A stretch of 64,000 nt of DNA. Source: Candidatus Aenigmatarchaeota archaeon (GTDB taxonomy: Archaea; Aenigmatarchaeota; Aenigmatarchaeia; CG10238-14; SpSt-28). Both the position numbers and the translations under genes were made by a program. Under the pieces are notes generated by a model. The model searched no databases. It was not told the origin of the DNA and worked only from the letters and a program-made list of their open reading frames with translations. The stretch covers positions 32,001-96,000 of the forward strand of contig JAVVFY010000003.1 of the NCBI GenBank assembly GCA_032249395.1, given 5' to 3'. Shown one piece after another: positions 27,929 to 34,174 of the stretch (position 1 is the first letter of the stretch; each line of letters opens with the position of its first letter).

Positions 27929-29131
27929 CTAAGGAGTAAACCATTCTATTTCATAATATTTGTGTTCTGAACCAGGCAATTCTATTCTATTAGCCAAATA
28001 ATATGTTACGCTTGTTTCCCTATCGTTTATAGCAATTAGCAATCTTAGTCCAAGCTCGTCAGCTCTATCCAAAGCGCTAGCAAGCATCTTCCCGCTTAAA
28101 CTTTCATCTTCATTAAGAGAAATTATTAGAAAAGAAGGATCGTCTTTTTTTGGTTTCTCAACTTGATTCCCAGCTTTTCTGTGCCACGCAACAAAATCTA
28201 TCGGAGTTCTCTCTTTTAAATAGTCTTCCTTCTTCATTCCTGGAATTGCCATTATAAAAGTTTTTCTCACGCTATGAGCTACTCTAATTGCTCTTGACCA
28301 TTCGCTCATTGGCATGCTAATTTCTTTTGGAAACACGTGAATGACATGCTTAGAATGTTGCCATTCTTTTTTTGTTCCAACCGGCTTTGCTCCGGGAAAA
28401 TAAATTCTAAAATGAGTTCCAAATTTAAAACCAGTTTTCAAAATAAAACCTTTATCTCTCCAATCCTCGTAAACTTCTAGCATTCTAGATGCAAAAGGTA
28501 TCCTTTGTTCAACTTCTTTTAGTACCTCTTCGAAGCTCATTTTTTTGTTAGAAGATACATCTATCACTTCTACTCCCTTTTTTGAAAGATATAAAGTTTC
28601 AATAGCATCCAAAGTTAAACAATTCCCTCTTTCAATATTCTTATAAACACCCCATTGACCAAACCAGTAATCCTCAAAAAATTTTCTTGCTTCTCTTCCA
28701 AAAGCTAAAGAATAACATTCTTCTCTCATGAAAAATATCTGAAAATTTATTTGAAGGGAAATTTTATTTGAAGGATATTTTTTGATTGGACTCTTCCCAA
28801 AGTTTTTCATTGTAATCCTTTCAGGAAATGTTATAAAAAGTCCTCTATCTTTCCAATCTCTAAACACATTATACCTAACAAAGAAATGGTTAGAATAAAA
28901 TCTTTGAAAAATAGTTGAAAGAGAAACTTCCTTATTACCTTCAAAAACGCTAGCCTTTCTTATGTTAGCAAGGTAAAAAACTTCTATGGGATGTAAGTAG
29001 ATTTTATTTCCTTTCACCTCTCCAATAAAACTTTCCTCTAGTTCTTTGTTTTGAGAAAATGCTTTACCATCTTCAAAATAAATCCTTATCTCCTCTCTCT
29101 CAAACTTCATTTTATATCCCTTAATACGCAA
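27929..29131 (-). CDS. endA: tRNA-splicing endonuclease, three-unit (epsilon2/ARMAN-2-like) type
   Basis: ~400 aa; LHPIEVFYL, VYEDWRDKGFILKTGFKFGTHFRIYFPG, HSKHVIHV, RAIRVAHSVRKTF, C-terminal YYEIEWFTP, and ARMAN-specific-loop-like WFGQWGVYK. True start may be the second Met (29110). Confidence 0.9.
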   Translation of the reverse strand: MRIKGYKMKFEREEIRIYFEDGKAFSQNKELEESFIGEVKGNKIYLHPIEVFYLANIRKASVFEGNKEVSLSTIFQRFYSNHFFVRYNVFRDWKDRGLFITFPERITMKNFGKSPIKKYPSNKISLQINFQIFFMREECYSLAFGREARKFFEDYWFGQWGVYKNIERGNCLTLDAIETLYLSKKGVEVIDVSSNKKMSFEEVLKEVEQRIPFASRMLEVYEDWRDKGFILKTGFKFGTHFRIYFPGAKPVGTKKEWQHSKHVIHVFPKEISMPMSEWSRAIRVAHSVRKTFIMAIPGMKKEDYLKERTPIDFVAWHRKAGNQVEKPKKDDPSFLIISLNEDESLSGKMLASALDRADELGLRLLIAINDRETSVTYYLANRIELPGSEHKYYEIEWFTP

Positions 29132-30520: not shown

Positions 30521-33333
30521 ATTGAAAAATAAATAGCCGGCTTGAAAGGTTCTGCTTTTTTTGCTTTTTCTAATCCACTCCTTTCTTCAAAAGTAATTAT
30601 TATCTTTGCTCCAGCCTCTTTCTCCAAAATTTCCCTTGCCTCTTCTAAAAGCTTAACTTCTTCTTTCCTTGATAGAATTTTTAATGATTCCCTTTCTCTT
30701 TCAATCTTCTTATAGAACTTCGCAACCATTTCTTTTTCTTCTGGCCCAAAATTTTCTAGTAAGCTCTTTAATTCAACCTTTTCTCCTCTCACGATTTTTC
30801 TAACCAAATCAAATTTCCATTTGGCAGCAATTATTATATCTACTTCTTTTGGAGCTCCTCCAGCCAATTTCTTTACTTGCTTTATGTCTTCTATTAAAGA
30901 TTTTATGTATTCTTCACCTAAAATTGCTTTCTCATCAACTCTTTTAAACCTTGGTAAACCTTCTTGAAATACAAACTTCTTTCCACCGAGCATTCTCCAA
31001 AACTCCTCAGACAAATGTGGAATTAGAGGAGAAACCAATATTACAAATTTCTTTAAAACATCTTTCATTATCTTTCCGTTACCGTTTTTAATATCCCCTA
31101 CCCTTTTAAAATACCACTCTAAATCGTTTAAAAATTCGAAAAATAAAAGTTGAGTAGACGTTCTAAACTTAAGATTTTCGTAGGCGTTTATAACGTCTTT
31201 ACCTATTTTATTTATTTTGGCCAACAAAAATCTATCAACATTTCTATTTTTCTTAGATTTCATTCTTTTCAACGACTTAATGAGAGAAAATAAAAAATTC
31301 AGCCTCTCTAAAAATACCTTAACATTTTCTCCTCTCCAATCAGCGTCGCTTAATCCTTCAGCTGAAGAGATTATATTTATTCTTGTTAAATCGCTCCCGA
31401 ATTCCTCTAACAAACGAAATAGAGGAATTATGTTTCCTTTGCTTTTGCTCATTTTTTCTCCCGCAATATTAACAAAACCATTTACAGCTATTGCTTTAGG
31501 CCAATATTTTTTATTCCAAATTGCAGTATGATGAAAAAGATAAAATGTTAAATGATTCTGAACTAAATCTTTTGCGGATGACCTTAAATCTACAGGATAA
31601 AAGTATTCAAACTCTTCCCTCATCTTTTTCAAAAGACTTTCTTTAATTCCATATCTCTTAGCTATTTTATTACAATTACCTTTTCCTAAGAATATGAAAT
31701 CGAAGACTTCGTCACTCAATTTATCTGCTGGTATATTTTTCAAATGATGGAAAATTGTATAGAAAGCCATGTATATGGTTGAATCGCTTAAAGTTTCAAT
31801 AATCCATTCTTTATCCCATGGTAACTTTGTTCCTAATCCTGTTTTTCGGGCGCAAGCTTTGTTTTCTAACCAATCAACAGTATTTATAAATTGTTGTCTT
31901 ATTTCTTCTGGATAAAACTTCATCATATTTATGCATTCTTTAACTTTTTTCTTCCATTCCTCATCAGAAAATTTTAAGAACCATTGATTCTCTAGTATCT
32001 TTACGTGACATCTTGTATTACATCTACAAACCACTAAACCTGTGGTTTCCCAAATAAAATCTAAAGCATTAATCGCTTTTAATAATTCAACGGTTTTCTC
32101 TTTTGCTTCTCTAACTGGTAAGTCTTTAAATTTGTCTACAATCATCTTTCCTTTGTGAAACTCTCTCTTGTAAACTTCTTGAGTAGCCAATTCTAATTTT
32201 TCGAATTGCTCTTGATTTTCTATATTATAAGCTTTACAAGCTTCTTCGGCCGGAATACCCTTGTAATCTTCCAGTTCTATTATCTTCTTTGGTTTAATTT
32301 TCTCTATGTTTAATTCTTTTCCAATTTCACTCTTTTTCAAATCTTCTAAAGCAATAAAATCGTAAGGAGCATGAGCAGGCACAGACATAACAATCCCTGT
32401 ACCAAATTCTAAATCTATAAATTTCGCAGGCAATATTGGTACTTTCTCTCTTGTTACAGGATTTTCTGTTAGTTTACCAACCAAAGAGCTTGAGTTTATT
32501 TTTTCTAATTCTTCAACGCTTCTTAACTGATCTCTTAATTTTTCTACAGTCTTTTTGCTAACTATCCACTTTTCTCCATTTACTTTTGCTAATACATATT
32601 CTTCATTAGGTTTAATCCAAATGTTTGTAACACCGAAAATAGTTTCTGGTCTTAAAGTAGCACATGGTAAAATTTCCCCGCTATCTAGCCTGAATTTTAT
32701 TACGTAAAACTGAATCGGACTTTCCCCTTCTCCTTTCAACCTATCATGATCCCCAGTTGGGCTTTGGCAATGTGGGCACCATATTACCGGATGAGTTCCT
32801 TGAACAACATAGCCTTTCTTTCTTAAAGTATTATATTGCCATTCAATGAATTTGTTGTAATGAGGAGTAATAGCAGTTATGAATGTTCTTCTCCAATCTA
32901 TACTCATTCCGCATCTTCTCAAGTCTTCTATCCATCTATTCATCCAGTATTTAGCAACAAATTCTGGTCCTTTCTCAACAAAATTTTTTATATCTTCGTC
33001 GCTTGCCCCAAAAAGTTTAAAAGTTTCTATTTGCGTTTCGTCATTTTGTTTAATTCTCTCTATAACACCCAATATAGGCTCTCCTGTGGCATGAAAGCCT
33101 TGAGGAAAAAGAACGTTAAAGCCTTGTAGTCTTTTGAATCTTGCAAAAGAATCAGCCCTAAAAAAAGAAAATGTATGACCAATATGAGGTGCCCCATTTA
33201 CGTAGGGATATGGAAATGTTACGAAAAACTTTTTTCTTTTATTATCAACATTTGCTTCGAAAACTTTTGTTTTTTCCCATTTTTTTTGCCATTTCTCTTC
33301 TATTTTTTTGATTTCTTCAAAAGTCAAATTCAT
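30517..33333 (-). CDS. leuS: Leucyl-tRNA synthetase (archaeal type)
   Basis: FPYPYVNGAPHIGH, ATLRPET, GTGIVMSVPAHAPYD, KMSKSKGN. Confidence 0.97.
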   Translation of the reverse strand: MNLTFEEIKKIEEKWQKKWEKTKVFEANVDNKRKKFFVTFPYPYVNGAPHIGHTFSFFRADSFARFKRLQGFNVLFPQGFHATGEPILGVIERIKQNDETQIETFKLFGASDEDIKNFVEKGPEFVAKYWMNRWIEDLRRCGMSIDWRRTFITAITPHYNKFIEWQYNTLRKKGYVVQGTHPVIWCPHCQSPTGDHDRLKGEGESPIQFYVIKFRLDSGEILPCATLRPETIFGVTNIWIKPNEEYVLAKVNGEKWIVSKKTVEKLRDQLRSVEELEKINSSSLVGKLTENPVTREKVPILPAKFIDLEFGTGIVMSVPAHAPYDFIALEDLKKSEIGKELNIEKIKPKKIIELEDYKGIPAEEACKAYNIENQEQFEKLELATQEVYKREFHKGKMIVDKFKDLPVREAKEKTVELLKAINALDFIWETTGLVVCRCNTRCHVKILENQWFLKFSDEEWKKKVKECINMMKFYPEEIRQQFINTVDWLENKACARKTGLGTKLPWDKEWIIETLSDSTIYMAFYTIFHHLKNIPADKLSDEVFDFIFLGKGNCNKIAKRYGIKESLLKKMREEFEYFYPVDLRSSAKDLVQNHLTFYLFHHTAIWNKKYWPKAIAVNGFVNIAGEKMSKSKGNIIPLFRLLEEFGSDLTRINIISSAEGLSDADWRGENVKVFLERLNFLFSLIKSLKRMKSKKNRNVDRFLLAKINKIGKDVINAYENLKFRTSTQLLFFEFLNDLEWYFKRVGDIKNGNGKIMKDVLKKFVILVSPLIPHLSEEFWRMLGGKKFVFQEGLPRFKRVDEKAILGEEYIKSLIEDIKQVKKLAGGAPKEVDIIIAAKWKFDLVRKIVRGEKVELKSLLENFGPEEKEMVAKFYKKIERERESLKILSRKEEVKLLEEAREILEKEAGAKIIITFEERSGLEKAKKAEPFKPAIYFSI

Positions 33334-33465
33334 TAGATAAATTTTAATTGCAAGTTTAAAACTTTATTTCCTACTTTCTATTCGGAAATAGATCTTCAAA
33401 AATTTATTAATTTTGAAAGTAAGATTAAAAAAGATAAAACTAGAAAATATCTAAATGTTTTCTGA

Positions 33466-33487
33466 TGCCGCTCTATCCAACTTGAGC
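33466..33487 (+). other. tRNA 5' leader antisense to the D-arm of the same tRNA
   Basis: TGCCGCTCTATCCAACTTGAGC (33466-33487) pairs with GCTCAGCTTGGATAGAGCGGCA (33506-33527): 20 Watson-Crick pairs, 1 G-U and 1 mismatch. Confidence 0.85.
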
Positions 33488-33597
33488 CCCCGTAAATTGG
33501 GGAAAGCTCAGCTTGGATAGAGCGGCACCCTTCTATCGAGAAGGTTTGACAAAAGGATGAAAGGTGACGGTCGCGGGTTCAAATCCCGCCGGGGGCG
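33486..33597 (+). tRNA. tRNA-Arg(UCU) with two introns (11 nt at 8/9: 33494-33504; 26 nt at 37/38: 33536-33561)
   Basis: Acceptor GCCCCCG/CGGGGGC with discriminator G; D arm GCTC-AGCTTGGATA-GAGC with A20 (Arg identity); anticodon arm GCACC-CTTCTA|A-GGTGA; T arm GCGGG-TTCAAAT-CCCGC. Two insertions must be removed to obtain a cloverleaf. Confidence 0.8.
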
Positions 33598-33748
33598 CTC
33601 CTGGAAAACGTTCATCGCCCAACCACCTCATTTAAATAACCTTCACTCATTTTCGCCTATGAGAGTTGAAGAAGAAAAATTCAAGAAAATTGTTGAGAAA
33701 AGGCTAGAGAAAATAAACAATGATTCAAGCATAAATCAAAATATTTGG

Positions 33749-34174
33749 TTAATATTCATTATCTTTACTCATTTCTTCTAATTCTTCATCTAAAATTTTT
33801 AAAAGTTCTTGTAGGTTCATGTCTTTCCTAAGTTTACTATACTTCGATAATGATAATGCCTCTTTCATACTAATTAATGAGCTTAACTCGCGAATCTGTC
33901 TATCCAGATTGGACATTAAAATAACTTCTTTAAAACCTTCTGATAATTCTTCACTTAAAGGGAAGCGTTCTCGAAATTTCTCGTATACAAGGGGAGGAAA
34001 ATTATAATTATAATTTTCACGAAGATACTTATAAGCTCCATTCTCACTGTAGGCTATTGAGAAAACGTCCTTAAGAGTAATATAGGGTATCTTCCAATAT
34101 TCTATTAAATCTTTTATAATAGAGATTGCTCTAGTTGTATATAATTCCATAAGAAACTTTTTAAATTCGTCCAT
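33749..34174 (-). CDS. Hypothetical protein
   Basis: 141-aa ORF with ordinary composition and no recognisable motif. Confidence 0.55.
   Translation of the reverse strand: MDEFKKFLMELYTTRAISIIKDLIEYWKIPYITLKDVFSIAYSENGAYKYLRENYNYNFPPLVYEKFRERFPLSEELSEGFKEVILMSNLDRQIRELSSLISMKEALSLSKYSKLRKDMNLQELLKILDEELEEMSKDNEY

Follow-up and report, generated by a model that had tools for sequence, protein, structure and literature searches.

A tRNA-Arg(UCU) gene of a hot-spring archaeon with an intron at position 8/9 and an antisense 5′ leader predicted to supply its splice helix

Results

A doubly interrupted tRNA-Arg(UCU) gene

In a window of 64,000 nucleotides (the whole stretch of DNA that was analysed, from genome G000), we identified a tRNA-Arg(UCU) gene that appears to be functional and to carry two introns removed by protein enzymes. 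As judged from the DNA letters and from folding models, the splicing of the first intron, at position 8/9, most likely depends on a transcribed 5′ leader that is antisense to the D arm. The gene spans window positions 33486-33597 on the plus strand, with G1 at 33486, U8 at 33493 and A9 at 33505 in tRNA numbering. Exon 1 (33486-33493, plus strand; G1-U8) is predicted to contribute G1-C2 to an outer helix and C3-C6 to a 4-bp central helix with the intron, and it ends in G7-U8, directly before the 5′ cut. The GGGG of intron 1 (AAATTGGGGAA, 11 nt, 33494-33504, plus strand) would pair with C3-C6, and its last two A residues would form with A9 a 3-nt bulge that contains the 3′ cut; these are the 11 extra nucleotides between the acceptor stem and the D arm to which a first-pass annotation of this DNA had pointed. 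Exon 2 (33505-33535, plus strand; A9-A37) comprises the D arm, the 5′ strand of the anticodon stem and the anticodon UCU, its nt 10-29 being the predicted partner of the leader in the precursor. It is followed by intron 2 at the canonical position 37/38 (26 nt, 33536-33561, plus strand), which has a conserved UUUGA...GAUGA motif and a boundary that is ambiguous within an A run, and by exon 3 (33562-33597, plus strand; A38-G73), with the 3′ anticodon stem, the variable loop, the T arm, the 3′ acceptor strand and the discriminator G. CCA is not encoded at its end (33597).

When 33494-33504 and 33536-33561 were removed in silico, ARAGORN run with no intron search called a canonical tRNA-Arg(tct) of 76 nt with a regular cloverleaf, and the intron-less orthologues at loci L022 and L027, from other genera, show the same sequence pattern, fixing the mature sequence. 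The Arg(UCU) orthologues, including these two, share a conserved G27.A43 mismatch that tops the anticodon stem (33531/33566 region). The interrupted gene was reported neither by ARAGORN in default mode nor by Rfam at the gathering score, as the first-pass annotation had anticipated for tRNA finders; Infernal gave a partial match only (model positions 9-63, 26.1 bits) and ARAGORN with introns allowed miscalled the gene as Ser(cga).

The canonical intron (33536-33561; L010-L019 and L280) follows the pattern AGAAGG-UUUGA, 3-9 nt, (R)GAUGA in at least 11 orthologues from several families. By its sequence it looks like a D′/C′ K-loop whose guide would pair with nt 31-36. In this pairing U34 lies opposite the fifth base upstream of UUGA, a position that points, as a prediction, to an intron-guided 2′-O-methylation of the wobble base. 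Genes for fibrillarin and Nop5 are encoded in the genome. In other genera, three Arg(UCU) genes (L018, L024 and L281) carry an additional insertion of another kind within the region of the anticodon stem, indicating that this tRNA was interrupted repeatedly in the order.

The antisense leader and the predicted splice motif

The leader (33466-33485, plus strand) is antisense to tRNA nt 12-29 and would form, together with G1-C2, the outer helix (h) of the splice motif; its proximal 9-10 nt alone are conserved across species. A repeat finder returned 33466-33487 and 33506-33527 as an inverted repeat of 22 nt, 91% complementary and 18 nt apart. Duplex folding of the leader plus G1-C2 against nt 10-29 gave 20 Watson-Crick pairs, with nt 15 in a U.G pair and nt 16 in a C x C mismatch, reproducing the counts that the first-pass annotation had given for its 22-position pairing (20 Watson-Crick, one GU, one mismatch).

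In the minimum free energy (MFE) fold of leader and gene, the long helix is followed by the CCCC/GGGG pairing of C3-C6 with the intron and by a 3-nt AAA bulge made of two intron bases and A9. If one strand is cut after the second base of the bulge and the opposite strand two bases beyond the central helix, exactly 33494-33504 is removed. The 3′ bulge can thus be written AA|A9 and the 5′ site, G7-U8|N in the loop, is of the relaxed form; removal restores U8-A9. The 8/9 intron of EndA type described earlier is therefore borne out, with one correction to its geometry, in that the MFE fold adds a G7.U pair and leaves a loop of 5 nt instead of 4 nt. This geometry matches the relaxed bulge-helix-bulge (BHB) called hBH or bulge-helix-loop (BHL), as it is defined in the relevant passages of PMC6379350 and PMC3239211. 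A central helix and a 3-nt bulge that yields the exact mature junction, as expected of an EndA intron, were both found at the 8/9 site, and the flanking helix, for which at least 2 contiguous pairs are expected, is predicted to comprise 21 pairs in G000 and between 9 and 18 in five relatives.

The leader-versus-body duplex of this gene (-32.6 kcal/mol) stands apart from those of the other tRNA genes of G000, the next best of the 44 genes having -12.7 and the median being -6.9 kcal/mol. No other leader-guided intron was found among these 44 genes or in the partial Infernal matches of the congeneric genomes G002 and G004. Two tRNA-Pro(tgg) copies of G000 (C2:48314-48387 and C2:50607-50681) have an identical 70-nt upstream sequence. 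That the hairpin might be the terminator of the upstream gene was considered and dropped, the upstream gene being divergent.

Copy number, codon usage and integrity of the locus

The G000 assembly comprises 752,806 bp in 25 contigs, with 31.9% G+C and a completeness of 89.5%. The first-pass annotation had raised the question whether this is the only Arg(UCU) gene, and in the 89.5%-complete assembly no second one was found by ARAGORN, by Infernal or by a regular-expression scan for T arms, which over the genome left no unassigned tRNA-like 3′ halves. One ARAGORN match on contig C11, an apparent Arg(UCU) gene with a 625-nt 'intron', was discarded as spurious, as it lies in GC-rich sequence that is not a tRNA. 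Of the 8366 arginine codons in open reading frames with 200 or more codons, 6485 (78%) are AGA. The 8/9-intron gene is also the sole Arg(UCU)-type match in G002 and in G004.

It had also been asked whether the arrangement could be an assembly artefact. Positions 33257-33804 are reproduced without any difference by a 548-nt contig that a separate study's DNA run yielded, and two other species carry diverged versions of this design. The exons are intact and nearly identical to those of the intron-less orthologues. We conclude that this is a real, doubly interrupted tRNA-Arg(UCU) gene and that it is probably essential. The runs that contain the stretch are hot-spring metagenomes; the contigs of three RNA runs (X18-X20) cover the flanking protein genes only, outside 33440-33680.

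Splicing enzymes encoded in the genome

A protein of 400 aa encoded at window positions 27929-29131 on the minus strand is a three-unit (epsilon-type) tRNA splicing endonuclease by its Pfam domains (PF01974 and PF02778), and it matches PDB 4fz2_A (395 aa) over its full length (E 3e-89). We take 4fz2 to be the epsilon2 three-unit endonuclease of ARMAN-2. On the strength of this homology, the 400-aa EndA is likely, as a prediction, to be the enzyme for the relaxed motif. The genome also encodes RtcB (573 bits) and an archaeal RNase P RNA, so that a host endonuclease predicted to act on relaxed motifs and a ligase, as an EndA intron demands, are found together in the epsilon-type EndA homologue and RtcB. 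PMC3239211 shows that, in vitro, a 13-nt intron at 59/60 with an hBH/BHL motif is cleaved by the epsilon2 EndA of ARMAN-2. A second EndA ORF, alpha-like and with both Pfam domains, lies on contig 2 (L031:1474-2145, minus strand).

Gain, decay and loss within the genus

The aminoacyl-tRNA-synthetase-like gene upstream of the locus is syntenic in all nine species of the genus. Three of the nine have the 8/9 intron, namely G000 (11 nt), G002 (13 nt) and G004 (13 nt), and in each of them it is accompanied by an antisense leader. In G005 (locus L003), which is closest to G000 by the flanking gene (90% identity), the loss of the 8/9 intron is exact; of the antisense leader the distal 9-10 nt survive there, and the 14 nt adjoining G1 are unpaired (-3.1 kcal/mol). 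From its sequence, G005 looks like a snapshot of intron loss. In the other five species, the upstream DNA is A/T-rich and without complementarity. When a 30-nt leader was folded against the body, the 19 intron-less relatives among 22 loci gave duplexes of -2.3 to -15.6 kcal/mol, with the exception of G005 at -25.5 kcal/mol. The antisense leader is absent from the intron-less orthologues and represented in G005 by a decayed remnant only.

In the flanking-gene tree, which is built from one gene and midpoint-rooted with no outgroup, the three intron-bearing species fall into one clade of five with G005 and G001. One gain followed by two losses fits this history of the 8/9 intron, as far as a single-gene tree without an outgroup can be read.

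Conservation and covariation across the order

The genomes of the order were searched with the pattern CCCNGT, 8-20 nt, GGGRAAGCTYAG, which matches 10 of 118; together with G000, whose gap is below the minimum of the pattern, at least 11 of the 118 have an 8/9 intron ending in GGGRAA. Eight of these, beyond the three species of the genus, belong to another family. Three of the four central-helix pairs are fixed by the search pattern, and the fourth, which was left free, is kept in 11 of 11 genomes as C:G (six times), G:C (four times) or A:U (once). The 3′ bulge reads AA|A9 in all 11. In pattern scans of wider contig collections, one of the matches listed was genuine (L233, a gene of the G004 type), the others being chance bacterial matches.

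Six genes combine this D arm with an 8/9 intron: those of G000, G002, G004, G069, G103 and G107. The anticodon loop identifies five of them as Arg(UCU); the anticodon of G069 could not be assigned. In each of the six, the leader is complementary to nt 10-19 of the tRNA, in a register that runs on into C2:G10 and G1:C11, with bulges of 0-3 nt, and the helix counts 21 pairs in G000, 18 in G002, about 13 in G004, 9 in G069, 12 in G103 and 12 in G107. At nt 16 the pair is G:C in G002 and G004, A:U in G069, G103 and G107 and mismatched in G000; C16 in the D arm thus goes with a leader G and U16 with a leader A, which makes one compensatory change. The search for covarying leader and D-arm pairs that had been proposed for related genomes was in this way rewarded. 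That the outer helix offers a single compensatory pair follows from the exon side, which is almost invariant. As the species are kin, the six genes may represent just two or three independent lineages.

RNAalifold on a MAFFT alignment of the six sequences recovered the central helix and missed the outer helix, since indels in the leader shift the register; the outer helix was therefore scored across genes by duplex folding of each sequence, mapped to tRNA numbering. The duplex of the proximal 14 nt ranges from -8.4 to -18.0 kcal/mol in the intron-bearing genes and from -0.7 to -10.3 kcal/mol in 21 distinct intron-less genes (other tRNAs with the same D arm included), the value of G103 and G107 (-8.4) overlapping the top of the intron-less range (-10.3).

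Introns at 8/9 in genes with other leaders

The remaining five 8/9-intron genes, four of tRNA-Asn and one Thr-like, are without a D-arm antisense leader, so that such a leader is one solution and not the only one. The tRNA-Asn(GUU) genes (L276-L279, in G045, G055, G087 and G088) have an intron of 13-14 nt at 8/9. ARAGORN calls are unreliable for 8/9-intron genes with further introns; after removal of the insert, tRNA-Asn(gtt) was called for three of these four genes of genus g15, the fourth (L278) not being called, and the gene of G055 becomes a plain 75-nt tRNA-Asn. Their leader duplexes with the D arm have only -5.0 to -5.3 kcal/mol. The leaders share a conserved GC-rich heptamer, perfectly complementary to the 3′ acceptor strand and paired with it in the predicted fold, in which exon 1 and the intron form a 6-bp hairpin. 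To judge by its sequence, the heptamer is like a decoy or a duplicated copy of exon 1.

The Thr(CGU)-like gene (L275, in G080), which ARAGORN calls Thr(cgt) after removal of the insert, has a 16-nt intron at 8/9; A6 pairs with U in its central helix, and its leader shows no complementarity. Read by eye, its intron can form a small inner helix.

Dependence of the predicted fold on the length of the leader

We folded the precursor and the spliced RNA with leaders of increasing length, in a series of MFE predictions in which kinetics and proteins are not included. The splice motif, that is the central helix together with C2:G10 and G1:C11, is the MFE structure only with at least 8-12 nt of leader, and it is absent without a leader. 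The earlier proposal that the leader supplies the splice helix therefore stands as far as the predicted fold of this gene goes, and does not extend to every 8/9 intron, given the four tRNA-Asn and the Thr-like genes.

With the 8/9 intron removed, the acceptor stem is the MFE structure at every leader length in G004, G069 and G107, a clean switch. In G000 and G002 it is favoured only with a leader of at most 10 nt at 37 °C or at most 14 nt at 65 °C. Spliced RNA that carries all 20 nt of the leader still has the hairpin as its MFE structure, at -48.4 versus about -35 kcal/mol at 37 °C and at -20.3 versus -14.8 kcal/mol at 70 °C. This implies either that the real leader is shorter than the complement or that refolding needs a helper or trimming.

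Two A/T-rich TATA-like candidates lie in 33428-33457 on the plus strand, the distal of which would give a leader of about 20 nt and the proximal one of about 7 nt, shorter than the 8-12 nt that the predicted fold requires. A Gibbs motif sampler run on the A/T-rich upstream regions of 42 tRNA genes settled on no positioned TATA/BRE.

Discussion

From the geometry of the motif, its conservation and covariation and the enzymes encoded, we infer a transcribed leader and the following order of steps. During transcription, the leader and G1-C2 would pair with the D arm from nt 10 on, and C3-C6 with the GGGG of the intron. The resulting hairpin would present an hBH, composed of the outer helix, the 3-nt AA|A bulge and the 4-bp helix, with the 5′ cut two bases into the loop, and an EndA of the epsilon type would cut after U8 and before A9. 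The helix of leader and D arm would keep the 8-nt exon 1 in place while RtcB joins the exons. Once the intron is gone, C3-C6 would be freed and the acceptor and D stems could form, upon which RNase P would remove the leader. Splicing is expected to precede 5′ maturation, because RNase P would destroy the leader helix.

An explanation that we regard as unlikely has the 8/9 intron spliced and the leader dispensable: this inverted D-arm copy would be a scar left behind when the intron arose, and a broad-specificity EndA would need nothing beyond a 4-bp helix, an AA|A bulge and the stack of 2 bp that G1-C2 form with G10-C11. The five 8/9 introns without a D-arm antisense leader agree with it, but the Asn genes have another conserved GC-rich leader element, and the Thr-like intron is longer (16 nt) with a possible inner helix. 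G004 has lost the distal half of the complement and kept the intron, as a dispensable leader would allow; the proximal 9-10 nt, on the other hand, stand in exact register with G1 in six of six genes from two families. The distal remnant that G005 retains with no intron can be read in the same sense, yet it is the proximal part that decayed there after the intron was lost. That the full-length hairpin would hinder refolding of the spliced RNA also speaks for a scar, whereas the compensatory exchange of G:C for A:U at nt 16, and a predicted fold that does not present the motif when the leader is taken away, speak for a leader that is used.

Still less probable, in our judgement, is that the hairpin mainly serves another end, for instance to keep RNase P from cleaving too early, to shield the precursor or to regulate the supply of tRNA-Arg(UCU), the fit to the splice site being secondary. 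A helix of about 18-21 bp in G000 and G002 far exceeds what the flank of a BHB requires, and the hairpin is stable after splicing in silico, both of which would suit such a role; however, among 28 distinct genes of this D-arm type, the hairpin occurs only with the 8/9 intron, the remnant of G005 being the exception, and the short versions of 9 to about 13 bp (G004, G069, G103 and G107) hold the register. We consider it very improbable that the locus is a decaying pseudogene or an artefact of assembly or inverted duplication, tRNA-Arg(UCU) being then supplied by a copy that lies in the 10% of the genome missing from the assembly. The completeness of 89.5% and the rejection of the gene by standard finders would favour this, but the independent DNA run matches 33257-33804 exactly, the exons are intact and near-identical to intron-less orthologues, the design is kept in three species of the genus and in three genomes of another family, the same gene is the sole Arg(UCU)-type match in G002 and G004, and most arginine codons are AGA. 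Among the readings in which the leader does take part in splicing, there is a real possibility, which we put forward tentatively, that it is an obligatory cis splicing guide and a one-way switch, which would form co-transcriptionally, unfold both D arm and acceptor strand, tether the 8-nt exon and be outcompeted by the cloverleaf once the intron is gone. If the leader is such a guide, the order of splicing, refolding and RNase P cleavage would be hard-wired, and the arrangement would be a cis counterpart of the leader pairing of split tRNAs and a living intermediate, in which pairing of a flank with an exon lets introns colonise positions without a native helix.

Non-canonical introns with relaxed motifs are well described in archaea, an intron at 3/4 being named an 'extreme case' in the passage of PMC4090602 that treats it, and BHB motifs in the acceptor stem are mentioned in PMC6379350. 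Among the closest systems is the pre-tRNA-Cys(GCA) of ARMAN-2 (Ca. Micrarchaeum acidiphilum), which, as presented in the relevant part of PMC3239211, likewise has a very short intron with no inner helix, a single 3-nt bulge, a 4-bp helix and a loop, in a DPANN host with a three-unit EndA. In that 59/60 intron the tRNA's own T stem serves as the outer helix, according to the same account, whereas here the leader pairs with the D arm, which must unfold. The 8/9 site has no native stem, so that the helix would come from the pairing of the 5′ leader with the D arm.

The primary paper on the 3/4 introns of the Thermoproteales is reportedly that of Sugahara in 2008. These introns, compared here through their description in PMC4090602 only, are also near the 5′ end, and by BHB geometry nucleotides upstream of G1 must participate in their splicing; unlike them, the present intron is at position 8/9 and belongs to a hot-spring DPANN lineage. 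In the split and tri-split tRNAs of Nanoarchaeum equitans and Caldivirga maquilingensis, a GC-rich leader pairs with the trailer of the other half and so builds the BHB, as summarised in the sections of PMC4090602 and PMC4033280 devoted to them. As in those tRNAs, a GC-rich leader outside the mature tRNA would here create the EndA site and hold the exons for ligation. Measured against the same summaries, the pairing differs in being in cis, within one transcript, and in joining the leader to an exon instead of another flank; the leader would form the outer and not the inner helix, stay on exon 1 and still need RNase P. The gene itself is neither split nor permuted, since its first two exons are contiguous, the 11 nt between them being too few to hold a promoter, the leader finds its partner in cis, in exon 2, and the order of the exons is collinear.

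In archaeal pre-rRNA, the BHB lies inside a long helix of inverted repeats that flank the 16S and 23S sequences, and the product is circularised or released. To the extent that PMC6379350 and PMC7714728 mention these processing stems with BHB, they resemble the present case in that a long helix built from flanks presents a BHB to the same endonuclease, and differ from it in that both arms are flanks there, one arm being here in the mature RNA.

The first-pass annotation knew of no description of such an arrangement. The use of flanks near the 5′ end had been anticipated, both for the 3/4 introns and in tRNAscan-SE 2.0, which, by the paragraph of PMC8450103 on this step, adds 60 nt of flank to candidates and so finds introns near the ends. 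For an 8/9 intron, or for a cis leader antisense to the D arm that makes an outer helix of 9-21 bp, no description was found in the literature searched, whose supplements may list 8/9 introns.

On the current view, introns of archaeal tRNAs are maintained only at sites where the tRNA around them is able to fold into the BHB signal. Here, sequence external to the mature tRNA seems to provide the helix, and the D arm has to unfold in exchange. As the sole gene found for a tRNA that reads 78% of the arginine codons is invisible to ARAGORN and Rfam, the tRNA sets of DPANN archaea may be undercounted. If the dependence on the leader is confirmed, more positions of the tRNA would be open to introns, RNA folding would set the order of 5′ maturation and splicing, and a mechanistic link would be drawn between cis introns and split tRNAs; the genus would then offer a natural series of gain and loss, from the long helix through the short helix to the loss of the intron with a decaying leader.
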